Assembly (NCBI GenBank): GCA_963747235.1
Contig: CAVVEU010000027.1
Span: 1 to 64,000 of the forward strand
From: an uncultured Candidatus Rokubacteria bacterium
GTDB lineage: Bacteria; Methylomirabilota; Methylomirabilia; Rokubacteriales; CSP1-6
Length of the DNA: 64,000 nt
Direction: 5' to 3'
How positions within the stretch are numbered: the first letter of the stretch is position 1; every line of letters begins with the position of its first letter. Position numbers and translations under genes: made by a program. Below the pieces are notes generated by a model. The model was not told where the DNA came from, did not search any database, and was given only the letters and a program-made list of their open reading frames with translations. This document shows, in pieces, positions 4,729-43,920 of the stretch.

Positions 4729-6738
4729 CTAGGAAACAGCCCGGCGCTTCGCGCGGACGAAGTCCACCAGCACGTACTCGCCGAGGCGATCGGACGTCGC
4801 GAAGAAGGCGCGGCCGCGATTGATGCGGGTCATCTGCTCGACGAAGGCGGCCAGGGCGTGGCTCTGCTCGAGCATGAACGTGTTGATCGTGATGCCGTCG
4901 CGCGTGCAGCGCTGGACTTCCTTGAGCGTCTCCTGGAGCGTCCGCCGCGTGGGCGGGTAGGCGAACTCGGGCTCGCTCCCCTCCATGTGCGCGGTGGGCT
5001 CGCCGTCGGTGATCATGATCACCTGCTTGTTGCCGCCCTTGTGGCGGGCCAGGAGCTGGCGCGCGAGGAGGAAGCCCGCGTGCATGTTGGTGCCCACGCT
5101 CCACTCGCCGGGGGCCAGGTGGGGGAGCTGGGCCGCGGAGAACTCGCGCGCGTAGAGCGAGAAGCCCACGATGTAGAGGCTGTCGCGCGGGAACTGGCCC
5201 CGGATCAGCGCGTTGAGCGCGAGCGCGACCTTCTTGGCGGGCAGGAAGCAGCCGTTGAAGATCATCGAGCGGCTCATGTCGAGCATGAGCACGGTGGCCG
5301 CGTGGGTCTGGGTCTCGGTGCGCACCACCTCGAAGTCGTCGGGGGCCAGCCGCACCGGGACGCCGGCGCCGTTGCGCTCCACCGCGTTCATCAGGGTCTC
5401 GCGCAGCTCGAGCAGGAACGGGTCGCCGAACTCGTAGGGCTTGGTCTGGTCGGTGCGGTCGCCGCCCGCGCCCCGCCGCTCGAGGGCGTGGCCGCCGAAG
5501 CGGTCGCGCTTGAGGTGCCCGAAGATGTCGCGCAGGGCCTTGTCGCCGATCTTGCGCATCGCCCGCGCGGTCAGCTCGAGCCGGTCGCCCTTCCGCTCGA
5601 GGTAGCCGGCCTCTTCCAGCTTCTTGGTCATCTCGCGCAGGCGCTCGAGGTCGCGCGCCGCCTCCTCGCCCAGGAGCTGCTCGACCTGCTGCGGGTCGAT
5701 CTTCTCGAGGTCGTTGGGGTCGCGCACCTTCTGGATCTGCCGCTCGAGCTCGTCGAGCTGCCGGAGCTCGTCCATCAGGTCCATCGCCTGCTTCATGGTG
5801 AGGTCGTCGTTGCCGCGGAAGTTGTAGCGCTGCCCGTCGGGCGGCGGCATGAGCTGGGAGAGATTCATGCCGAGCTGGCGCAGCTCGGCCTCGAGCCGCT
5901 CGTCCTGCATGAAGAGCGACTGCATCATGTCCTGGAGCTGGCCGCGCTGCCCGGGCGACATGCTCGAGAGCAGCGACTGCATCTGGCCGGCCTGCTGGGC
6001 GATCTGCTCCATGAGCTGGTCGAGGTTCTGGGCGCCCGGAAAGTGATCGCCCCACTTCTGCTTGAAGGCCTCGAAGTCCGGCTCGCGCCCCTCGGCCCGG
6101 TCCTGGAGCATGCGGTTGAGGTCCCGCATCATCTCCCGCATCCGCTCCAGATCCTGGGGGGTCATGTTGCCGAGCTGCTTCTGCATGTTGGAGAGGAACG
6201 GCTGCAGCATCTGCTGCTGCAGGCCCTTCATCAGCTCCCAGAACATGCGGTGCGCATCGGGATCCATGAACTCGTAGTTCTGCAGGCCCTGGATGCGCCC
6301 GGCGGGCGACTCCGGCATCTCGTCGAGCGTCTTCTTGTGCTCGGCGGCCGCCTGCTCCATGCCCTGCCGGAACGATTCGGGCGCCTCGCCCTTCTCGGCC
6401 CGCTCCTTGGCGTCGCCCACCCGCCGCTCGATGCCCTCGCGCTCGGTCTTCAGGATGTTGTCGAGCTTCTGCTTGATGTCGTCGAGCACCGAGGAGAGAT
6501 CGTAGCGGTCGAGCTGCTGCTGGCGCTGCCGGCGCAGCCGGTTCAGCAGATCTTGAAGTCCGGGGAGGTTGGCCCCGTCCGGATTCTTGGCGCCGCGCTG
6601 GAAGAGGCGCCGCAGCGCGCTCCACGGGTCGCCGTCCGACAGGAGATCGTCGGCCATCGCGTCGAGGAGCTGATCGGCGTCGAGATCGTCGAGGCGCTGG
6701 GAGCCGTCCCAGCGCGAGTACCAGCTCAGGGGCGACAC
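4729..6738 (-). CDS. VWA domain-containing protein
   Basis: YSRWDGSQ N-terminus, coiled coil, MIDAS DMSRSM, GTN, ITDGEPT. Confidence 0.9.
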   Translation of the reverse strand: MSPLSWYSRWDGSQRLDDLDADQLLDAMADDLLSDGDPWSALRRLFQRGAKNPDGANLPGLQDLLNRLRRQRQQQLDRYDLSSVLDDIKQKLDNILKTEREGIERRVGDAKERAEKGEAPESFRQGMEQAAAEHKKTLDEMPESPAGRIQGLQNYEFMDPDAHRMFWELMKGLQQQMLQPFLSNMQKQLGNMTPQDLERMREMMRDLNRMLQDRAEGREPDFEAFKQKWGDHFPGAQNLDQLMEQIAQQAGQMQSLLSSMSPGQRGQLQDMMQSLFMQDERLEAELRQLGMNLSQLMPPPDGQRYNFRGNDDLTMKQAMDLMDELRQLDELERQIQKVRDPNDLEKIDPQQVEQLLGEEAARDLERLREMTKKLEEAGYLERKGDRLELTARAMRKIGDKALRDIFGHLKRDRFGGHALERRGAGGDRTDQTKPYEFGDPFLLELRETLMNAVERNGAGVPVRLAPDDFEVVRTETQTHAATVLMLDMSRSMIFNGCFLPAKKVALALNALIRGQFPRDSLYIVGFSLYAREFSAAQLPHLAPGEWSVGTNMHAGFLLARQLLARHKGGNKQVIMITDGEPTAHMEGSEPEFAYPPTRRTLQETLKEVQRCTRDGITINTFMLEQSHALAAFVEQMTRINRGRAFFATSDRLGEYVLVDFVRAKRRAVS

Positions 6739-6745
6739 GCGCGCC

Positions 6746-8140
6746 TCACGCCACCCGGTAGCGCGCCTGCCCGGCCTGCACGTCCTTGTTCAGCTTCTTG
6801 CTGAGGTGCAGGCCCTCCAGCACGAACTCGACGGCCGCGGCCACGCTCGCCGGATCCTGCGCCCCGAGCTTGCGCACCGCGGCCTGCAGCGGGCGCACCT
6901 GGCCGAGGTGCCGGAGGTAGAGATCGGCGGGCATGGAGTCGGAGACCTCGATCTTGAGCCCGTCCTGGAACGCGCCCACCACCTCGTCCAGCTCGCCGGA
7001 GGTGAAGCTGCGGTTGAACACGTTGAGCAGCGCACGCTGCATGATCTTGCCCATGACCTTGTCCTCGGTCGCGTCGCCGAGGCTCTCCATCTCGATCTTG
7101 CCGCCGGTGGAGGCGGCGATGGCGCTGAGGTCGCTCACCCGCGGGGCGGCCACCGCCTCGCCGAGGCGAATCGCCCGCTTCACCGCGTTCGACAGGAGGT
7201 TCTCGTAGTTGCAGATCGTCACGCGCACCGACACCCCGGAGCGCTGGCTGATCTCGGGCGAGCGGCGGGCGAGGTGGGTGACCTCGGCCACGAGCTGCTT
7301 CATGAACTCCGGGCTCCGGGTCTCGAGTCCCGCGTCGACGTAGGTGGTGCGCTCCGCCTCCATGATCGCGATCTCGTCCTCCACCCGCCGGGGGTAGTGG
7401 GTGCGGATCTGCGAGCCGAAGCGGTCCTTGAGCGGGGTGATGATGCGCCCGCGGTTGGTGTAGTCCTCCGGGTTCGCGCTCGCCACCACGTAGAGGTCGA
7501 TCGGCAGCCGCACCTTGTAGCCGCGGATCTGCACGTCGCGCTCTTCCATGATGTTGAGCAGGCCCACCTGGATGCGCTCGGCCAGGTCGGGCAGCTCGTT
7601 GAGCGCGAAGATGCCGCGGTTGGTGCGGGGCAGGAGCCCGTAGTGGATGGTGAGCTCGTCGGAGAGGTAGCGGCCCTCCGCCACCTTGATCGGATCCACC
7701 TCGCCGATCAGGTCGGCGATCGTGATGTCCGGGGTGGCGAGCTTCTCTCCGTAGCGCCGGTCGCGCGGGATCCACGCGATCGCCGCCTTGTCTCCCTGCT
7801 CGCCGACGCGCTGGCGGCACGCCGAGCAGATCGGGGCGAGCGGCTCGTCGCTGATCTCGCAGCCGGCCAGCGCGGGCATCTCCTCGTCGAGCAGCCCGAC
7901 CAGGAGGCGGGCCATGCGGGTCTTGGCCTGGCCGCGCTCGCCCAGGAAGACGATGTCCTGGCCGCTCAGCACCGCGTTCTCGATCTGGGGCACGACGGTC
8001 TGCTCGTAGCCCACGATGCCGGAGAAGAGGCTCTCGCCGCGGCGCAGGCGGGCGATCAGGTTGTCGCGCAGCTCCTGCTTGACGGAGCGGGACACGTACC
8101 CGCTGTCGCGCAGCTCTCGAATCGTGGTCGGCTTCGCCAT
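6746..8140 (-). CDS. AAA+ ATPase, Mg-chelatase ChlI/MoxR-like
   Basis: Walker A GERGQAKT, LNELPDL, ANPEDYTNRGRIITPLKDRFG. Confidence 0.9.
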   Translation of the reverse strand: MAKPTTIRELRDSGYVSRSVKQELRDNLIARLRRGESLFSGIVGYEQTVVPQIENAVLSGQDIVFLGERGQAKTRMARLLVGLLDEEMPALAGCEISDEPLAPICSACRQRVGEQGDKAAIAWIPRDRRYGEKLATPDITIADLIGEVDPIKVAEGRYLSDELTIHYGLLPRTNRGIFALNELPDLAERIQVGLLNIMEERDVQIRGYKVRLPIDLYVVASANPEDYTNRGRIITPLKDRFGSQIRTHYPRRVEDEIAIMEAERTTYVDAGLETRSPEFMKQLVAEVTHLARRSPEISQRSGVSVRVTICNYENLLSNAVKRAIRLGEAVAAPRVSDLSAIAASTGGKIEMESLGDATEDKVMGKIMQRALLNVFNRSFTSGELDEVVGAFQDGLKIEVSDSMPADLYLRHLGQVRPLQAAVRKLGAQDPASVAAAVEFVLEGLHLSKKLNKDVQAGQARYRVA

Positions 8141-8167: not shown

Positions 8168-8196
8168 ACTATGCGGCGGGCGCTGGCCGCTGTCAA
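8168..8196 (-). promoter_or_regulatory. Sigma70-type promoter for the AAA+/VWA operon
   Basis: Minus strand TTGACA (8196-8191), 17 nt spacer, CATAGT (8173-8168). Confidence 0.65.
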
Positions 8197-8208: not shown

Positions 8209-8237
8209 TTGACACGCGGCGGGAGGCCGGTCAGGAT
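8209..8237 (+). promoter_or_regulatory. Sigma70-type promoter for the RAPP leader (likely leaderless)
   Basis: TTGACA (8209-8214), 17 nt spacer, CAGGAT (8232-8237), ATG 6 nt downstream. Confidence 0.65.
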
Positions 8238-8243
8238 CAGCCC

Positions 8244-8541
8244 ATGCCGATGGGACCGGGCGGGGCGCGGTGGTGCCGGCTCCTCCTGATCGTCCTGCTC
8301 GTGCTGCCCATTCCCGCGGCGATCGGCATGTACGCCGACGACGGCTGGATGGCCGTCTCCGACCCCGCCGAGAGCGACGAGAGCCGGCTCCGTATCGCCG
8401 CGGGCGTGCTGCCCGACTCCGCGTGGATCCTGCCCGCGCCCACGTCCGCTGGCGGCGGGCCGTCCCGTTCGCCCGCCGACCCCGATCGTCGCCGGCTGGA
8501 CCTGTCTCACCCCGCCCGACCGCGCGCCTCCTCGCGCCTGA
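8244..8541 (+). CDS. Putative RAPP-motif ribosome-arrest leader peptide (one frameshift)
   Basis: N-terminal hydrophobic segment RLLLIVLLVLPIPAAIG in frame 3; Pro-rich tail ...TPPDRAPPRA* in frame 1. Confidence 0.6.
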
Positions 8542-8604
8542 TCGTTTCGCGCGCTCCGTTCCCGTCGCTCGATTCATTCCCATTCACGCGAGGAGACCCA
8601 AGAC

Positions 8605-8859
8605 ATGAAGACCATTCTGCTGACGATCACCGCGCTCGGATTTGCCGTTTCGCCCGCAATCGCCAATGAGTGCCCCCTGCTGCACAAGCAGGTGATGGCC
8701 GCCGCCGAGTACCGGCTGGACGACGCCGCCTACAAGGCGAGGATGATGGCCGCCGAGGGTGACGCCCTCCACAAGGCGGGCAAGCACGCCGAGTCCGCGG
8801 CCAAGTACGACGAGGCCGCGAAGGCGATGGGCATCACGCTCACCCACAAGCCGCACTGA
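8605..8859 (+). CDS. Small secreted helical Cys/His protein, possibly metal-binding
   Basis: AGGAG SD, signal peptide, mature N-terminus NECP, EGDALHKAGKHAES, C-terminal HKPH. Confidence 0.8.
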   Translation: MKTILLTITALGFAVSPAIANECPLLHKQVMAAAEYRLDDAAYKARMMAAEGDALHKAGKHAESAAKYDEAAKAMGITLTHKPH

Positions 8860-8923
8860 GCCACCCCGGAAGCCAGCGACGCGCCCCGGAAGCCGATCGG
8901 GCCCCGGGGCGCGCTGTCTCGCC

Positions 8924-9481
8924 TCAGGCGGTCTTGCGCGGCGGCAGCAGGTAGCCGATCAGCAGCACGTTCAGGTGGAGCAGCAGCAGCTTGTTCCACG
9001 CCACCGCCGCCCGGAGCGCCGCCGCCGGGTCACCCAGCTCGTCGCGAAAGATGCCGGCGAGCGCGGTCTGGGTGAGGCTCATCGCGGCCACCATGAACTG
9101 CGGGGGGATCTTGCCGCCCGGCCCGTAGTCGCGGTGGCTGTGGGCGAGGCCGACCGAGAGCAGGTAGTACACGAAGTCGTGGGTCAGCGCGGCCTCGGCG
9201 GTCTCGCGCAGCCATCGGGCGAGACTGTGCTTGCGCCGGTCGATCCGGGTGCGGTCCGGCGCCCCGTCCGGGCCCAGGAAGAAGCGCGCGGTCGCGGGAA
9301 AGCGCAGGAAGTGCTCGTAGAGGGCGCTGGTGAGCGCGGCCTCGTGCTTCAGGATCGCGGGCGCGCTCGCGCGGATGGCGGCCGTGTCCGCCTCGTCCAG
9401 GCCGACGAATTCGGCCAGCTCCCGGACGTATCGCTCGAGATCGGCTCCCGGGGGTACTCGCTCGTCTTCCTCGCCGCTCAT
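8924..9481 (-). CDS. Standalone protoglobin / globin-sensor domain protein
   Basis: FVGLDEAD, LYEHFLRFPATARFF, VGLAH (proximal His), AWNKLL. Confidence 0.8.
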   Translation of the reverse strand: MSGEEDERVPPGADLERYVRELAEFVGLDEADTAAIRASAPAILKHEAALTSALYEHFLRFPATARFFLGPDGAPDRTRIDRRKHSLARWLRETAEAALTHDFVYYLLSVGLAHSHRDYGPGGKIPPQFMVAAMSLTQTALAGIFRDELGDPAAALRAAVAWNKLLLLHLNVLLIGYLLPPRKTA

Positions 9482-9515
9482 GGGTCCCTCCTGTTCGCGT
9501 GCGATAATACCGTGC

Positions 9516-10031
9516 ATGCGAACCACCGTCGCGTCCGTGCTGGTGGGGCTGCTGGCGGGCGTCCTCGCCGCGTGCGCGTCGTCCTCGGCCGGCCTGCCCT
9601 ACAAGCCCGCGGTGCAGCCGCCGGGCGCCACCGTATCCGCCGCCTACACGATCGTGAGCGACCGGCTCCGGGTCGAGATCGACGGCCGCGGGCGCCGCGT
9701 CGAGCGGGCGCAGATCGTGAAGCCCGACGGCGCCGTGCTCGAGGCGCAGACCATCGAGTACACCCCGGCCGCGGGCGGCGGGGGCAGCCCGGTCAGCATC
9801 GGCTTCGGGATCGGCAGCTTCGGGAGCATGGGCGGCGGGGTGAGCACGGGGGTCGGCGTGTCGACGGGCGGGGTGGTGGGCGGCGGCGGGAGCAGCAGTG
9901 AGGTCGGGAGCAGCATCGCCTCCTTCCCGCTCGCCCAGGCCGGGCCGAGCCCCTGGCGGGTACGCGTCAAGCTCCAGGGCACCGATCCGGCCGACATCCT
10001 GGTCGGCGAGCCCGGGCCCGCTCCGCGCTGA
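9516..10031 (+). CDS. Lipoprotein with Gly-rich segment
   Basis: Lipobox LAAC; SIGFGIGSFG..GVGVSTG. Confidence 0.7.
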   Translation: MRTTVASVLVGLLAGVLAACASSSAGLPYKPAVQPPGATVSAAYTIVSDRLRVEIDGRGRRVERAQIVKPDGAVLEAQTIEYTPAAGGGGSPVSIGFGIGSFGSMGGGVSTGVGVSTGGVVGGGGSSSEVGSSIASFPLAQAGPSPWRVRVKLQGTDPADILVGEPGPAPR

Positions 10032-13167: not shown

Positions 13168-14242
13168 GGGGGCGACGTCGACGTCGGACGTAGCGCCCGC
13201 TCTCCTCGCTCACCTTCGTCGCGAGCTGCACGCGGCCGATCTCGCCTACGCCGAGCCGCCGGCCCCGATCAGCGGCGGCTTCGACACCTCCATCTACGCC
13301 TTCCGCCTGAGCGCCGGGCCCGCCGCGTGGTCGGGCCCGCTCATCCTGCGCGTGCTGAGCCCGGGCCACGATCCGGTGCGCGCGCTCCGGGAGCGCGCCA
13401 CCCAGAACGCGCTCGCCGGGCTCGGATATCCGGTGCCGCGCGTGCTCATCGCCAGCGCCGACCGCGGGCCACTCGGCACCGGGTTCCTCGTGATGGAGCG
13501 CGCGGCCGGCCGCCCGCTCCTGGCCAGCCGCCGGCCCGGGATCGGGCGGATGCTCGCCGAGGCGCAGGCGCGCCTGCACGGGCTCAACGCCGAGGCGCTC
13601 CTGCGTACGCTGGACGACGAGGGCCGCGCGGCCGGCTGGGTCTTCGATCGTGACGCGGTCGGCTTCGAGAGCCATCTCGCCTCGCTCGACCGGCGCATCC
13701 AGGCGGCCGGGCTCGCCGGCCTGGCGGACGGGATGCGCTGGCTCCGCACGCGCCAGCCCGCCGAGCGGTCCGCGCGCGTGATCTGTCACGGCGATTTCCA
13801 CCCGCAGAACCTGCTCGCGGAGAACGGGCGGGTGACCGCGGTGCTCGACTGGCCCAACGTGCTGGTGGCCGCGCCCGAGTACGACGTGGCCGCGACGCGC
13901 GTCATCCTCACCCAGACGCCGCTCGCCCTGCTGCCGATGCCCGCCGCGCTCCGGCCGCTCGCCGCCGCGGGACGGCGGCTCCTGGCCGCGCGCTACCTGG
14001 CGGTCTACCGCAAGCTGCGCCCGCTCGATCGGACGCGGCTGCCGTACTTCGAGGCGGCGGGGTGCATGCGCGGGCTGGTGCGCGCCGGGGAGGCGCGCGT
14101 GGGGGCGGGCGCGGCGCCGAGCCCGCTCGACGCCTCGTCGTTCGGCGAGCGGCTCGCCGCGCGCTTCGGGCGCGCCAGCGGCGTCCCGGTGACGCTGCCG
14201 CCGCCGCCGCCGCTGACCGTGCTACCATTCCCGCGAAAATAG
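13164..14242 (+). CDS. Aminoglycoside phosphotransferase / choline kinase family protein
   Basis: GGFDT, CHGDFHPQN, VLDW. The frame is open upstream of 13352; a start at GTG 13164 needs one extra G in a homopolymer. Confidence 0.8.
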
Positions 14243-14264
14243 ATCACCCGGCTCCGGAGGCCCC

Positions 14265-15673
14265 ATGAACGCGACCGATCTGGCCTACACGCCCGCAACC
14301 GAGCTCATTCCCCAGATCCGGTCGAAGGCGCTGTCGCCGGTGGAGCTGACCCGGGCCGTGCTCGAGCGCATCGAGCAGGTGAACCCGAAGATCAACGCGT
14401 TCTGCACGGTGACCGCGGACGCGGCGCTCGCCGCCGCGCGCGCCGCCGAGGACGCGGTGATGAAGGGCGGGCGGCTCGGCCCGCTCCACGGCATCCCGGT
14501 CTCGATCAAGGATCTGGCCCTGGTGCACGGCGTGCCCGCGCGCTTCGGCTCCCACATCTTCGCCACAGCGCGTCGGCGAGGTGGACGCGCCGTACGTGCG
14601 CCGGCTCAAGGAGGCGGGCGCCATCCTCACCGGCAAGACCAGCCACGCCGGAGTTCGGCTGGAAGGCGCTCGGCGATAGCCCGCTCACCGGGATCACGCG
14701 CAATCCGTGGAACCTCGGCATGACGTCGGGCGGCTCGAGCGCGGGCGCCGGCGCGGCGACCGCGGCGGGGCTGGGGCCGCTCCACCAGGGCTCGGACGGC
14801 GCCGGCTCGGTGCGGGTGCCGTCGGCCTTCTGCGGGATCTACGGGCTCAAGCCCACCTTCGGGCGCGTGCCCATGTGGCCGGTGTCCAACACCGACAGCG
14901 CCTCGCACACCGGGCCGATGACGCGCACGGTGGCCGACGCCGCGCTGATGCTGGGCGTGATGGCGGGACCCGATGACTGGGATCGCCAGTCGCTCGACGC
15001 CGCCCCTGACGATTACGCGGGCCGCCTGCGCACCGGCATCAAGGGGCTGCGCGTGGGATGGAGCCTCGATCTGGGGTGCCTGCAGGTGGATCCCGAGGTG
15101 GGGCAGGTGGCGAAGCGCGCCGCGCTCGCGTTCCAGGAGCTGGGCTGCGTGGTCGAGGACGTGAAGGTGAGCTGGCCGGACACGCGCGAGATGATTCACC
15201 TGATGTGGAACGCGCACTATGCCGGCAACTACGGGCAGTACCTCGACGAGTTCCGCTCGCGCATGGACCCGGGCCTGGTGGCGGCCCTCGAGGACGGCCG
15301 CCGCTACAGCGCGGAGGCCTACGTGGCGATGCGCGGTCGCAAGCACGTCTACTGCGACGCGGTGCGCGCGACCTTCGACACCTACGATCTGCTGCTCACC
15401 CCGACGGTGTCGGTCGCGGCCTTCGAGGTCGGGCGGCTCAACCCGGTGGGCTTCCCGCAGCATCCGTGGGACTGGTTCCCGTGGGCCGGCTTCAGCTACC
15501 CGTTCAACTTCACCGGGCAGCCCGCCGCCACCGTCCCCGCCGGCTTCACCGCCTCGGGCATGCCGGTGGGCCTGCAGATCGTCGGTCGCCGCCTGGCCGA
15601 CCTTCAGGTATTGCAGGCCTCGGCCGCCTTCGAGCAGGCGCGGCCGTGGGCCCAGAAGCGGCCCAGCGTCTGA
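14265..15673 (+). CDS. Amidase, amidase-signature family (frameshifts near 14570 and 14640)
   Basis: GPLHGIPVSIKD, GGSSAG, GSDGAGSVRVP, GLKPTFGR, MPVGLQIVG. Confidence 0.9.
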
Positions 15674-17366: not shown

Positions 17367-18577
17367 CTACTTGCGGCTGCCCGCGTAGCGCTTCTCGACG
17401 TAGTCGTCGAGGATCTTCAGGAAGTCGGCGACGATGGCGTCGCCCTTGAGCGTGAGCTTGAGCGCGCCGTCCACGAAGACGGGGGCCTTGGGCTCCTCGA
17501 AGGTGCCGGGCAGCGAGATGCCGATGTCGGCGTGCTTGGACTCGCCCGGCCCGTTGACCACGCAGCCCATCACCGCGACCTTCAGCTCCTCCACGCCCGT
17601 GAAGCGGTTCTTCCACACCGGCATCTGGTCGCGCAGGTAGGTCTGGATCTGCTCGGCCATCTCCTGGAAGAAGGTCGAGGTGGTGCGCCCGCAGCCGGGG
17701 CACGCGGTCACCAGGGGCAGGAAGCTCCGGATCCCGAGCGACTGGAGGATGAGCTGGGCGACCTGCACCTCCTCGGTGCGATCGCCGTTGGGCTTCGGCG
17801 TGAGCGAGACGCGAATCGTGTCGCCGATGCCCTCCTGCAGCAGGATCGCGAGCCCCGCGGTGCTCGCCACGATGCCCTTGGCGCCCATGCCCGCCTCGGT
17901 GAGGCCGAGATGCAGCGGGTAGTCGGAGCGGGGGGCGAGCTTGCGGTACACGTCCACCAGGTCCTGCACGCCCGAGACCTTGGCCGAGAGGATGATGCGG
18001 TCGTGGCCGAGGCCGGTCTGCTCGGCGAGCTCGGCGGACTGGATCGCGCTCTCCACCATCGCGTTCATGGTGACGTCGCGCGCGTCGAGCGGCTCCGTGC
18101 TCCTGGCGTTGGCGTCCATCATCTGGGTGAGCAGGTTCTGGTCGAGGCTCCCCCAGTTGACGCCGATGCGCACCGGCTTGCCGTTGTCGATCGCGACCTC
18201 GGACGATCGCGCTGAAGTTCTCGTCGTGGTGCTTGCCGCCCACGTTGCCCGGGTTGATGCGGTACTTGGCGAGCGCCCGGGCGCAGTCGGGATACTTGGT
18301 CAGCAGCACGTGGCCGTTGTAGTGGAAGTCGCCGATCACCGGCACCGTCGACCTGCTTGACGATCTCGGGAACGGCGCGCGCCGCCGCCTCGGTGTTCAC
18401 GGTGACGCGCACCAGCTCGCTGCCCGCGGCGTGGAGCGCGTTGACCTGGGCCACCGTGCCGGCCACGTCGGCGGTGTCGGTGTTGGTCATGGACTGGACG
18501 ATGATCGGCCGCGGGCCACCGACCTTGACCCCACCCACGTCCACCGAGATCGTCTTGCGGCGCTGCGGCGCACTCAT
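17367..18577 (-). CDS. ispG: HMBPP synthase (frameshifts near 18200 and 18345)
   Basis: [44 protein letters not shown]. Confidence 0.93.
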
Positions 18578-28190: not shown

Positions 28191-28275
28191 GCGAGAGTGG
28201 CGGAACTGGCAGACGCGCTGGACTTAGGATCCAGAGGGGCAACCCGTGGGGGTTCAACTCCCCCCTCTCGCACCA
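28191..28275 (+). tRNA. tRNA-Leu (anticodon TAG)
   Basis: Acceptor stem GCGAGAG/CTCTCGC, anticodon arm CTGGA-cttagga-TCCAG, long variable arm, GGTTCAA T-loop, encoded CCA. Confidence 0.96.
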
Positions 28276-28308
28276 GAACCCGAAAATCGTCATGAAGGTG
28301 GAACGGCC

Positions 28309-29585
28309 ATGAAGGTGGAGATCGAAGAGCTGGGGGGCTGCAAGCGGCGCCTGCAGGTCGAGGAAGCCCCCGAGGTCGTCTCGAAAGCCTGGGAACAGGC
28401 CTTCGATCGCGTGCAGCGCGAGGCGAAGCTTCCCGGATTCCGCAAGGGCAAGGTCCCGCGCAGCATGATCAAGCTGCACTTCGCGGACGACGTGCGGCAG
28501 GAGGTGGCCCGCCACCTGATCCCCGACGTGTACCGCCAGGCCCTCGCCGAGACGCGCATCGAGCCGGTGGAGGAGCCCGATCTGCAGGAGGTCACGCTCG
28601 AGGAGAACGCGGCGTTGAAGTTCGCCGCGGTGGTCGAGGTCAAGCCGGTCATCACCCTGGGCGCCTACGACCGGCCTCGCGGTCGAGCACACGCCCAAGC
28701 CCTTCGCGGAGACCGAGGTGGACGAGGCGCTCGGCACCCTGCAGGAGCAGCACGCGGAGTACCGCGCGGTCGAGCGGGCCGCCGATCCCGGCGACCTCGT
28801 GATCGTGGACTACACGCTCACCCCCGAGGGGCAGGAGGCCCGCTCCGAGACCGGCTACGGCTTCGTCATCGGCGGCGGCAGCGTGCTGCCCGAGATGGAA
28901 GAGGCGGTGATCGGGCTGACCGCGGGCGGCTCGCGCCAGACGCGGGTGCGCTTCGGCGACGACCACCGCAACGAGGCGCTGCGGGGCAAGTCGGCCGAGG
29001 CCAGCGTGACGGTGACCGAGGTGAAGGAGAAGGTGCTGCCCGCGCTCGACGACGAGCTGGCCAAGACGGTGGGCGGCAACTTCGAGACGCTGGACGCCCT
29101 CCGGACCGAGGTCCGCACCGGGCTCGCGGCGCGGCGCGACGCGGACAACCGCCGCGCGCTGGAGACCGCGGTGCTCGACGCGGTCATGGCCGGCCACACC
29201 TTCGAGGTGCCGGAGGCGCTCATCCTGCGCCAGGTGGGGCACCAGATCGAGCACGCCCGGGAGCACATGCGCCGGCAGGGGGTGGACCCGGACAAGGTGC
29301 CGTGGGACTACAAGAAGCTCCTGGAGGACCTGCGTCCCGGGGGCCGAGAAGGCGGTCAAGCGCGCCCTGCTCATCGAGGCCATCGCGGAGAAGGAGGGCC
29401 TCGCCGCGGCCGACGCGGACGTGGACGCCGAGATCGAGCGCGTGGCCCAGGCCAGCCAGCGGCCGGCGCCCGCCGTCCGGCGGATGCTCGAGCAGAGCGG
29501 TGACCTGGAGGGGATCCGGCACTCCCTGGGCGAGCGCCGGACCATTGATTTCCTCATCGAAAAGAATCAGGCAAAGACCGCCTGA
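28309..29585 (+). CDS. tig: Trigger factor (frameshifts near 28670 and 29340)
   Basis: PGFRKGKVP motif, FKBP domain, canonical tRNA-Leu-tig-clpP-clpX order. Confidence 0.92.
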
Positions 29586-38290: not shown

Positions 38291-40091
<1,801 letters not shown>

Positions 40092-40190
40092 GGCTTTCAC
40101 TGTACCACGGATGGAGTGGCGAACCAGCGCGCGGCTGGGGCATAATGACGAGTCCAATCCGGCGTCCCACGTTGCCAAGGAGGCTCATTC

Positions 40191-40772
40191 GTGAAGGCTC
40201 GCGTCGCCATCATCGCGCTCGTCGCGCTGTTCGTCACGCTCGTGCTGCCCGTCCCCGGCCCGATCGGGCCCGTCGGCGCCCAGCAGCCGACCCCACCCGC
40301 ACCCAAGGAAGCCCCCAAAGGAGGCAAGAAGGTGAAACAGACGGCCGTCATCACCATGGAGAAGGGCGGCGAGATCGCGCTCGAGTTCTTTCCGGAGGAT
40401 GCGCCCAAGACGGTGGAGAACTTCGTGACGCTGGCCAAGAAGGGCTACTACGACGGGGTGACCTTCCACCGCGTGGAGCCGAACTTCGTGGTCCAGGGCG
40501 GCGATCCCAAGGGCAACGGCACCGGGGGCCCCGGCTACACCATCAAGGACGAGTTCAACAAGCAGAAGCACGTCCGCGGCGTGCTGGCGATGGCGCGCAC
40601 CCAGGCCCCGAACTCGGCGGGCAGCCAGTTCTACATCACGCTGGCCCCCGCCCACTTCCTGGACGGCCAGTACACCGTCTTCGGGCGGGTGACCTCGGGC
40701 ATGGAGATCGTGGACAAGATCAAGGTGGGCGACAAGATGAAGTCGGTGAAGATCACCGAAGCCCCCCAGTAA
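40191..40772 (+). CDS. Cyclophilin-type peptidyl-prolyl isomerase with signal/anchor
   Basis: APKTVENF, FHRV, QGGDP, GSQFYI, LDGQYTVFG. Confidence 0.93.
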   Translation: MKARVAIIALVALFVTLVLPVPGPIGPVGAQQPTPPAPKEAPKGGKKVKQTAVITMEKGGEIALEFFPEDAPKTVENFVTLAKKGYYDGVTFHRVEPNFVVQGGDPKGNGTGGPGYTIKDEFNKQKHVRGVLAMARTQAPNSAGSQFYITLAPAHFLDGQYTVFGRVTSGMEIVDKIKVGDKMKSVKITEAPQ

Positions 40773-40776
40773 CGCC

Positions 40777-42376
40777 ATGCCCTGGTCGCTCCTGATCCGG
40801 AACGGCACGGTGGTGGACGGCAGCGGCGCGCCCGCGCGCGCCGCCGACGTCGCGGTGGAGGGCGATCGCATCGCGGCGGTGGGGCCGGGGCTGGCCGGCG
40901 AGGCGGATCGGGTGATCGACGCCAAGGGCCTGATGGTCGCCCCCGGCTTCATCGACATCCACTCGCACTCGGACCTGGTCTACGACAAGTGCCCGTCGGC
41001 CGAGTCCAAGGTGCGCCAGGGCGTCACCACCGAGGTGGTCGGCATGTGCAGCTTCTCGCCGGCCCCGGTCGCCCCGGGCCGCGCGGATCTGGTGCAGGAG
41101 TGGGCGGGTGGCATCGGCGGCAAGATCCCCATCACCTGGAACACCTTCGGCGAGTACCTCGATCACCTGCGGGCGCTCGGCCCCTCGGTGAACATCGTGC
41201 AGTTCGTGGGCCACGGGGCGCTGCGGCTGGCCGCGGTCGGGGCCGCGGCGCGCGCGGTGACGCCGGAGGAGCAGCAGGGCATGGAGCGGCTGCTCGCGGA
41301 AGCGCTCGACGCGGGCGCCTTCGGCTTCTCCACCGGGCTCGTGTACGCGCCCAGCGTCTACGGCAACACCGACGAGCTGGTGGGGCTCGCCCGCAGCATG
41401 GCGAGCCGCGGCGGGCTCTACTTCTCGCACATCCGGGGCGAGGCGGCCACGCTCGAGCAGGCGGCCGAGGAAGCCATCACGATCGGCGAGCGGGGCGGGG
41501 TGCCGGTGCAGATCGCCCACGTGAAGGCCTCGGGCCGCGAGAACTGGGGCAAGATGGACCGCGTCCTGCGCCTGATCGACGGCGCCCGCGCCCGCGGCGT
41601 GGACGTGACCGGCGACGTCTATCCCTACCCGGCGGGCAGCACCAAGATGGACAACCTGCTCCCGTCGTGGATGCACGACGGCGGCATCTCGAAGCTGCTC
41701 GAGCGGCTCACCGATCCCAAGGCGCGGCAGCGCGCGATCGGCGACTGCCTGGTGGACGGCGAGCGCTGGCGCACCGGCTCGGGCGGCATGGGCTGGGACG
41801 AGATCATGATCGCCACGTGCTCGAAGCCGGAGCTGGCCGGCATCCACATCGCGGAGCTGGCCCGGCGCACCGGCAAGGAGCCGGCCCAGGCCATGATGGA
41901 TCTGGTGATGGAGGAGCGCGCCGGCGTCTCGATGGTGGTCTTCTCCCAGAGCGAGGAGAACGTGGGCACCGCGCTCGAGCTACGCCCACAACATGGTGGG
42001 CTCGGACTCGCTGTCGCTGCACGCCGGCCCGGGTCCGCATCCCGGCAAGCCCCACCCGCGCAGCTACGGGACGTTCCCGCGCGTGCTCGGCGTCTACTGC
42101 CGCGAGAAGCGGCTCTTCTCCTGGGAGACCGCGGTGCACAAGATGACCGGCATGCCCGCGACCAAGCTCGGCCTGAAGGACCGCGGGGTGGTGCAGGGCG
42201 GCCGCGCCGCCGACCTGACGCTCTTCGATCCGGCCACGGTGCGCGACGAGGCGACGTTCCCGGATCCGCACCGCCATCCGGTCGGCATCCCCTACGTCAT
42301 CGTCAACGGCCGGGTGGTGGTGGACGGCGCCCGCTACCACGCGGTGCCGGCCGGCCGCGTGCTGACGCCTCAGTAG
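40777..42376 (+). CDS. N-acyl-D-amino-acid deacylase (frameshift near 41980)
   Basis: PGFIDIHSHSD, STGLVYAP, DVYPY, HPRSYGTFPR. Confidence 0.9.
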
Positions 42377-42972: not shown

Positions 42973-43905
42973 TAGGCGGCCCAGCGGTGGTCGCGCAGGT
43001 ACTCGACCGCGGCGAGGGCGGCGGTGGCCCCGTCGCCGGCCGAGGTCACGAGCTGGCGCGCGGACTCGGCGCGCACGTCGCCCGCGGCGAGGATGCCCGG
43101 GACCCGCGTGCGCATGCGCAGGTCGGTCACGATCTGCCCGCGCGCGTCGAGCGGCACGAGGCCGCCCAGGAACTCGGTGTTGGGCGTGAGCCCCGCGTAG
43201 ATGAACACGCCGCTGGCCGCGCAGGGTGGCGGTCTTGCCGCTCGTCAGGTCCTCGACCTGCACGCGCTCGACGCCGTCCGCGCCCTCGATCGCACGGAGC
43301 GCGGTGTTCCACCGGAAGGAGATCTTGCGCTCGCCGCGCCCCCGCTCCTGGAGGCTCGCGCAGGCGCGCAGGGTGTCGCGGCGGTGCAGCACGGTGACCG
43401 AGGAGGCGTACTGGGTGAGATGGATCGCCTCGTCCACCGCCGCGTCGCCGCCGCCCACCACGATCACCGGCTTCTCCATGAAGAAGGAGCCGTCGCAGGA
43501 GGCGCAGTGCGAGAGGCCGCGCCCCAGGAACTCCTCCTCGCCCGGGACGCCGAGCGTGGTGAAGCGCGAGCCGCTCGCGACGATCAGCGTCCGCGTCGTG
43601 TGGGCGCCACCGTCCGTCTCGACGTGCAGCAGGTCGCCGTCGCGATGCACCGCGGTGACCTCGTTCATCGCGATCTGGAGCCCGGCCGCGGTGGCCTGCT
43701 CCTGGAGCAGCGGGCCCAGGGTGTAGCCGGCCACGCCCTGGGGGAAGCCGGGGAAGTTGGTGATGTGCTCGCAGTTGAGCACCTGGCCCCCGGAGGAGAA
43801 CTTCTCGAGCAGCAGCGCGCGGCGGCGATCGCGGGCGGCGAAGATGCCGGCGGTGTAGCCGGCGGCCCCGCCGCCCACGATCAGGACGTCCAGGACGTCC
43901 GCCAT
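42972..43905 (-). CDS. Thioredoxin reductase-like flavoprotein (frameshift near 43220)
   Basis: GGGAAG, CASCD redox motif, GGGDAA, HRRD, AAGDVR. Confidence 0.9.
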
Positions 43906-43920
43906 GCGCTGGGTCGCGGC

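Follow-up and report, generated by a model that had tools for sequence, protein, structure and literature searches.

A conserved RAPP leader with a putative anti-Shine–Dalgarno element upstream of a small secreted protein gene in Rokubacteria

Layout of the locus

The window analyzed here is a 64,000-nucleotide stretch of an assembly (GCA_963747235.1; G000 in our locus handles) from an uncultured Rokubacteria bacterium. Within it, a putative promoter, a short leader open reading frame (ORF) and the gene for a small secreted protein, hereafter the target, follow one another with these features:

8209..8237, plus strand: putative sigma-70-type promoter with a perfect −35 and a weak −10 box, 6 nt before the leader start (from sequence and alignment)
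8244..8541, plus strand: RAPP leader ORF, ~98 aa in relatives, interrupted here by a net +1 frame change
8280..8327, plus strand: hydrophobic segment (signal peptide or signal anchor) with Arg residues in front, assigned by hydropathy only
8337..8381, plus strand: acidic patch with Trp35 (D32, D33, W35, D40, E43, D45, E46), homologous to the W...D-x-x-D-x-D motif of a wider family
8450..8485, plus strand: frame-change zone with small indels, net +1, probably an assembly error
8521..8541, plus strand: RAPP-R-A-stop codons, putative arrest site with Pro3 in the P-site and Pro4 in the A-site (sites assigned after PMC12992588)
8528..8536, plus strand: anti-Shine–Dalgarno (anti-SD) strand inside the Pro-Pro-Arg codons, containing the rare CCT-CCT
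8542..8586, plus strand: pyrimidine-rich (C/T-rich) spacer, its length not restricted to multiples of three; possibly a Rho-loading tract
8587..8595, plus strand: strand containing the SD (AGGAG, 9 nt before ATG 8605), pairing with the anti-SD
8605..8859, plus strand: 84-aa secreted protein with a signal peptide, a three-helix bundle and conserved Cys23-Pro24, His56 and His61

A preliminary description of this DNA had located the promoter elements, the ORF, the RAPP tail and the stop codon, and all of them lie where it placed them. On the plus strand, TTGACA (8209-8214) is followed after 17 nt by CAGGAT (8232-8237) and, 6 nt further on, by ATG 8244; the mRNA is likely leaderless or near-leaderless, starting at the leader ATG. 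The promoter had been called a consensus one, which holds for the −35 box, the spacing and the 6 nt to the ATG but not for the −10 box, where only 3/6 positions match, and a promoter scanner made no call for it, reporting only a divergent promoter at 8196-8168. TTGAC and the −10 positions A2/T6 are kept 6–7 nt upstream of the leader start in 11/11 aligned genomes. A terminator scan of the region found none. A divergent gene pair encoding an AAA ATPase (ChlI/MoxR-like) and a VWA protein (window 4729-8140, minus strand) has a good promoter match at 8168-8196 and adjoins the leader in relatives too. Directly after the target gene lies a convergent protoglobin gene (window 8924-9526, minus strand), with a GC-rich inverted repeat between the two (~8880-8915).

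The hydrophobic and acidic parts of the leader share one frame, while its tail, RAPP-R-A-stop (8521-8541), is in the next. Intact leaders of relatives measure 91–101 aa, run on the same strand as the target and carry a hydrophobic segment with Kyte–Doolittle values of 2.3–3.2, separated from the RAPP motif by 54–65 aa (>30 aa). The leader gave no Pfam or NCBIfam match above cut-off, and Rfam, searched at E up to 0.5, returned no family except one chance snoRNA match in 8 loci. It had been described as missed by ORF calling, which is true of this frameshifted copy but not of the intact relatives, which are called as hypothetical proteins. Taken alone, the RAPP motif is at chance level, with 414 occurrences within five residues of a stop in the six frames of this genome (71% GC); that it is real is indicated by its conservation in relatives and not by its occurrence in a single sequence. 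Long ORFs of the genome contain RAPP/RGPP only rarely (3, compared to 48 AAPP/AGPP).

Conservation of the leader among relatives

The leader proved to be widespread next to close homologues of the target. An unbroken ORF comprising the hydrophobic segment, the acidic patch and RAPP-R-[AV]-stop was present in 10 of the 11 other genomes with a close orthologue, while the eleventh (L008) has 104 nt upstream and a truncated remnant of the leader. With metagenome loci included, RAPP was located 77–91 nt before the target ATG in 39/43 close loci, all of them kin and some near-duplicates. Three of these 39 loci are cut by contig ends and our own was set aside, leaving 35 assessable non-self loci, 32 of which carry the hydrophobic segment and RAPP in one frame; of the other three, the leader of L063 is frameshifted and those of L044 and L059 carry internal deletions. 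At the protein level, each of the 39 homologues of an intact leader has RAPP followed by two final residues. The expectation of an intact RAPP ORF upstream of homologues was thus borne out, which supports the proposal of a RAPP leader with an export segment before a gene for a small secreted protein.

Counting against the switch proposed below, the leader was lost or degenerate in 4/43 loci (lost in L049 and L051, degenerate in L060, a remnant in L008). In L049 and L051, the whole leader is gone and the promoter is fused to the target gene, while L036, L040, L041 and L043 retain RAPP and have lost the anti-SD. The leader profile matched in 6/151 genomes of the class, five of which belong to the host genus. 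Together, the comparative data indicate that the RAPP leader with its anti-SD is genuine and conserved; evidence from a single sequence is weak.

The frame break in the window copy

The frame change reported in the leader is present, although it maps to ~8450–8485 rather than to the suggested 8400–8460. Programmed frameshifting was ruled out, as relatives carry the leader in one frame. Single-base indels are frequent in this assembly. Among ORFs orthologous to relative G013, 13/44 are split here compared to 5/37 in the reverse direction, and for nine of the 13 the break falls in the middle of a named gene, among them leuS, ispG, tig, typA and trxB; compared to a second relative, G015, 0/7 ORFs are split, a point against an assembly error. 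Frameshifts were located in the genes for an amidase, IspG, Tig, TypA, an amidohydrolase and TrxB (window 14217-15664, 17370-18577, 28228-29582, 38294-40103, 40750-42373 and 42975-43914) and in leuS at G000:C8:711051. With splits in leuS, ispG, tig and typA as well, an assembly error is the probable cause of the break, and we consider it quite likely that this leader copy is intact in the organism.

A system that is real in the genus and dead in this strain would instead require a recent true frameshift, after which ribosomes would read through the anti-SD out of frame and terminate at 8669. The break is, after all, present in the sequence and looks like more than one small indel, and natural losses of the leader are known from L049, L051 and L008. 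We nevertheless regard this scenario as unlikely, though worth keeping in mind: essential genes are split in the same way, and the surroundings of the break show no decay, with 65 identical residues in the N-terminal 72 compared to the intact P0243 and a perfect tail and anti-SD. It concerns this copy alone and is compatible with any of the mechanisms discussed below.

Selection on the anti-SD and on the RAPP codons

As previously described, 8528-8536 and 8587-8595 are exact reverse complements of each other, and the second contains the SD of the gene at 8605. Folding 8515-8610 recovered the 9-bp helix in both the minimum free energy and the centroid structure, but the energy was no better than that of shuffled sequences (z −0.28; 73/200 shuffles as good). 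The case for the helix is therefore built on conservation and codon choice. Of the two Pro codons in RAPP, one is CCT in 35/39 loci and the other in 31/39; both are CCT in 31/39. In the genomic background, CCT accounts for 1.4% in 1,405 long ORFs and CCT-CCT for 4/1,666 Pro-Pro pairs; among the other Pro codons of the leaders, 2/226 are CCT. The two wobble U residues of CCT-CCT pair with A residues of the SD. This preference points to selection at the RNA (nucleotide) level on the anti-SD. Across the helix, 97.5% of 243 cells pair, including five changes from G-C to G-U. None of the 243 cells showed two-sided covariation, and pair shuffles performed equally well; this is what one would expect of a helix that joins an SD to codons for Pro-Pro-Arg.

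Placing the footprint of a stalled ribosome on the mRNA reduced the computed opening cost of the start region from 15.2 to 12.1 kcal/mol, with a decrease in 29/31 loci; synonymous recoding of the anti-SD gave a computed cost of 12.0 kcal/mol. Two observations weigh against a strong effect: in the eight of 39 loci without CCT-CCT, the cost hardly moves (12.7 to 12.2), and even with the footprint the start region stays structured at ~12 kcal/mol.

The encoded peptide also appears to be under selection at its end. The ratio pN/pS was 0.04 for the D-R-A codons, 1.02 for the whole leader, 1.19 for the acidic region and 0.33 for the target gene. The value for D-R-A shows protein-level selection; those for the whole leader and its acidic region weigh against the switch proposed below. 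The linker is free in sequence, yet kept in frame and length; the distance from the Trp of the acidic patch to the Arg of RAPP is 58 aa in 15 of the 24 relatives measured.

An acidic Trp/Asp motif shared with a wider leader family

The acidic patch lies 46–63 residues from the P-site. The earlier statement that the leader has no clear DUF2946-type CxxC held: CxxC was found in 0/31 intact leaders, and four intact leaders did not match the DUF2946 profile at E up to 1. CxxxC was not seen in the leader alignment and occurred in 1/120 members of the wider family described below. Metal sensing of the Cys/His type, also considered earlier, found no sequence support, as the leader has no invariant His and its sole near-invariant Cys precedes the hydrophobic segment.

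We scanned the genome for ORFs with a hydrophobic segment, the motif and a downstream gene. The scan returned four RAPP, three RGPP and one RSPP leader and none with AAPP, AGPP or ASPP; two or three of these are frameshift debris. Two leaders, one of them before tatA, carry W...D-x-x-D-x-D 60–61 residues before RAPP. Such W...D leaders occur in 16/41 genomes of the taxonomic family, often in several copies, with 935 matches among 8,000 candidates. The residues D26, W29, D35, D38 and D40 are invariant in the wider family, in which the Trp-to-Arg distance is fixed at 58–61 residues; in the 120 best members, it could be measured in 116 and is 60–61 in 115 of these, a count biased by the profile. 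AlphaFold modeled a wider-family leader with confidence only in the N-terminal helix, and the motif has a pLDDT of ~50. Genes after W...D leaders include tatA (3/14 neighbors scanned, not always adjacent) and those for an RND pump, two glycosyltransferases, an HTH protein and unnamed secreted proteins. In L246 (G000:C14, minus strand, RAPP at 152303), a 97-aa W...D RAPP leader lies 99 nt before a 66-aa TatA-like gene, and similar leaders are located before or near tatA in L279, L262 and L276.

Our leader aligns with this family over the hydrophobic segment and motif (hhalign probability 88–90%, E 2–3e-6), and its profile has one match outside the genus, a W...D leader; its Asp pattern is looser than that of the wider family. 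It is thus best described as a putative diverged member of an unnamed and apparently new family of W...D RAPP leaders, with the acidic motif at a fixed distance from RAPP as the conserved candidate sensor. Since the motif is common to leaders of tatA and other envelope genes, it favors an export/envelope or hard-cation signal over Cu, Zn or Ni.

The small secreted target protein

Secretion and conserved His56 and His61 agree with the earlier label of a small secreted Cys/His protein, which fits less well in that the protein has just one Cys. Its model (pLDDT 84) contains three helices (17–34, 40–57 and 61–75) after the signal peptide. Over 114 sequences, Cys23 is conserved at 96%, Pro24 at 89%, His56 at 92% and His61 at 89%. 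From the up-down-up topology, these residues would lie at one end of the bundle, which suggests a soft-metal or heme site, and a role as a periplasmic helper that binds metal or heme is probable. Its best fold matches were LanD (9c8w; Z 9.2, rmsd 1.9, 59 aligned) and SmbP (3u8v; Z 7.0), both in the range below Z ~13 that is unspecific for helical bundles. The target resembles these small periplasmic helical metal-binding proteins in three-helix arrangement and size, but shares just 17% and 8% identity with them. Sequence searches of the PDB gave no match, and Foldseek gave none at E 0.001.

Matches to the target gene occur in 39/61 relatives and 130/151 phylum genomes, and Atlas clusters place its relatives in Rokuibacteriota/Methylomirabilota. 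The target has no Pfam or NCBIfam match above cut-off, the Pfam set searched being one without the PF27144 model. Its Atlas cluster (0.94, 208 shared features) has 42% of members carrying PF27144 (PA14_33160), to which the target is probably related on this cluster likeness. PA2433 is presumably the PAO1 counterpart of PA14_33160; we found no paper on the function of the latter. Proteobacterial relatives were recovered by tblastn from a paralogue, and one of their four annotated neighborhoods contains copper genes. There, in Sinorhizobium sp. M14 pSinB (L239, 3950-6975), the homologue lies near genes for Spy/CpxP, a heavy-metal-associated domain and a copper nitrite reductase; the other three show no metal link.

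Other leaders of target paralogues and further RAPP leaders

Most target paralogues have no leader; these sit after what we take, from the translations, to be uvrC or a Rieske-like ferredoxin gene. A second paralogue group is preceded by an RGPP-type leader 154–188 nt upstream, in G000:C8 and five of six fetched relatives, and four loci of other genera carry a T-R[AS]PP-type leader before a paralogue. In L251 (G000:C8:561716-562417), the RGPP leader, which is unrelated, lies 163 nt upstream and has a long tail, and its motif codons form no clear anti-SD. A common origin of the three leader types was rejected, as they are not alignable (hhalign probability 0.2–3%). They occupy three separate subclades of the target tree, which was tested for groups without leaderless rows, with 56/172 rows thinned out and just 86 columns, and which does not fix the number of leader gains.

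Several further leaders came to light in the same genome. L247:1712-1990 (G000:C13, minus strand, RAPP at 324028) is a 93-aa RAPP leader with CxxxC and His; it precedes a 475-aa secreted, probably outer-membrane protein, is CutF-like and has no Pfam match. RAPP/RSPP leaders were also located at G000:C22:13762-14046 (L245), G000:C29:93498-93776 (L250), G000:C8 minus 171236 (L249), G000:C31 minus 78898 (L248) and G000:C35 minus 9307. Two of these five are of the W...D type (the C29 copy is frameshifted), one has a His, one precedes a TonB-like gene and one is a His/Cys RSPP leader. In L025, L070 and L152, a common element ~100–170 nt upstream of a small-protein paralogue can be read as a short ORF ending in F-[RK]-L-x-G-R-G-[VL]-F-stop or as a GC hairpin, and has no Rfam match.

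Relation to known arrest peptides

Small RAPP/RGPP upstream ORFs before diverse genes were described by Fujiwara et al. (EMBO J 2025, PMC12992588). Our leader shares with them the small ORF, localization signal, C-terminal RAPP and same-strand downstream gene. Their screen passed over genes of unknown function in the downstream position, and the authors name stall release in systems other than Sec monitoring and copper sensing as a question still to be answered. The tail of our leader is absent among the rows listed in supplement 8, which include one row of the wider PPDPTW family, and the main text makes no mention of an acidic motif, tatA or a stem-loop. The design also resembles SecM, ApdA and ApdP in export signal, spacer of >30 aa and RAP[P/G]-type motif, and in the expectation, shared with Sec/YidC monitoring substrates, that a stall exposes a sequestered SD (PMC7897499, PMC10987492). 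It differs in the downstream gene, which is secA, secDF or yidC in those systems and here encodes an 84-aa secreted protein that is not a Sec, YidC or Tat component. We found no sequence family match to SecM, ApdA or ApdP; the nearest named Atlas cluster is SecM_small (0.90, 107/256 features).

CutF-cutO of Rhodobacter (bioRxiv 10.1101/2025.02.05.636593) and CruR-bfrG of Bordetella (PMC9426467) share with our leader an exported peptide, a Pro-rich arrest end and a conserved motif at a fixed distance; CutF opens an SD stem-loop, while CruR has a fixed 45-residue CxxC-RAPP spacing and acts through Rho. In contrast to these DUF2946 leaders, ours has the Asp/Trp motif in place of CxxC or CxxxC. 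The leader thus appears to be neither CruR/CutF nor located upstream of sec/yidC genes, and its distinguishing marks compared to known RAPP leaders would be a cysteine-free aspartate motif common to a large unnamed family and an uncharacterized target. Our literature search found no paper on arrest peptides in Rokubacteria, on a RAPP arrest peptide linked with tatA or on a monitoring-substrate arrest peptide linked with proton motive force and acidic residues.

Proposed mechanism and alternatives

The leader fits the known design of RAPP arrest peptides in which a stall would open the SD. We hold it to be probable, on balance, that a RAPP arrest-peptide leader switches on translation of the next gene, with the acidic patch reporting the state of export or of the envelope. 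A near-leaderless mRNA would begin at the leader ATG, and the N-terminal segment, judging from its hydrophobicity, would insert the growing chain into the Sec translocon, its C-terminal part pointing outward. By analogy with ApdA, ApdP and CruR, the ribosome would stall at RAPP unless the chain is pulled. Our computations suggest that the stalled ribosome, by covering the anti-SD in the Pro-Pro-Arg codons, would free the SD 55–60 nt downstream, so that the small secreted protein is made; with efficient pulling, it would finish two codons later and the helix would re-form. Since the acidic W...D patch would sit at or just past the translocon exit, it may tune the pull and provide a readout of protein export or envelope state. 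RAPP alone is insufficient for arrest (PMC7897499), which counts against stalling here. An acidic peak lies at 46–55 residues in four leader sets, of which three are unrelated; for the three leader types before the target and its paralogues, the Asp/Glu peak is ~41–55 residues from the P-site, with only 5 and 4 sequences for the RGPP and T-R[AS]PP types. Nascent-chain segments reach the translocon ~45 residues from the peptidyl transferase center (PMC7886326), and the pull of the membrane potential on acidic residues is strong enough to relieve SecM arrest (reviewed in PMC6028853). Because of these distances and this pull, we infer that monitoring of export or membrane potential is the leading reading of the signal, with a carboxylate-bound ion second.

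In that second reading, the leader would sense a ligand as CruR and CutF do, but through carboxylates: outside the membrane, a hard cation (Ca, Mg, Mn or a lanthanide) would bind to the Asp cluster, whose ion-dependent folding would make or break the stall, so that the amount of periplasmic metal-binding protein made follows the supply of the ion. The clustered Cys/His/His of the target counts in favor; against it, ligands of the Cys/His type suit soft metals rather than the ions preferred by Asp. The invariant Asp and Trp residues and their fixed distance from RAPP resemble the CruR spacing (PMC9426467), and LanD is the best fold match of the target, although at an unspecific Z. The genes controlled by the family (tatA, RND, glycosyltransferase, HTH) are mixed rather than metal genes, the Asp pattern is looser in our leader and the motif is unfolded in the model. 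We consider this reading unlikely.

Improbable in our view is that the stalled ribosome acts mainly on transcription by keeping Rho off a loading tract in the end of the leader and the spacer, with the anti-SD secondary. CruR sets a precedent (PMC9426467), the spacer is C/T-rich and the sub-lineage of L036, L040, L041 and L043 keeps RAPP without the anti-SD, but the rare CCT-CCT of most loci occurs exactly where its two wobble positions pair with the A residues of the SD. The slimmest chance falls to an absence of stalling, be it translational coupling only, with terminating ribosomes opening the helix, or a small membrane protein with a chance anti-SD: the stop two codons past RAPP means that terminating ribosomes would cover the anti-SD too, and most of the leader evolves neutrally, but the Arg and Ala of RAPP vary only synonymously despite lying outside the helix, RAPP is retained where the anti-SD is lost and R[AGS]PP is the ending of each of three unrelated leaders.

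Implications

Returning to the arrest-peptide switch, the W...D family offers a candidate sensor that is free of cysteine, sharply delimited and held at a constant spacing from RAPP, with hundreds of natural variants; together with natural losses of the leader or the anti-SD, these make the question of stall release testable. For the uncharacterized secreted protein family of this abundant, uncultured soil phylum and of Proteobacteria, the leader is a first regulatory clue, while the W...D leaders point to possible arrest-peptide control of tatA. A broader and rather speculative picture is that Rokubacteria run a multigene envelope regulon through a large arrest-peptide family, in which an Asp cluster ~50–60 residues from the stall site would sense membrane-potential pull, or a hard periplasmic cation, and control tatA, efflux and secreted proteins, the phylum-wide Cys/His three-helix protein having been put under such control three times independently. 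If true, this would be the first natural arrest peptide to read membrane potential or a carboxylate-bound ion.
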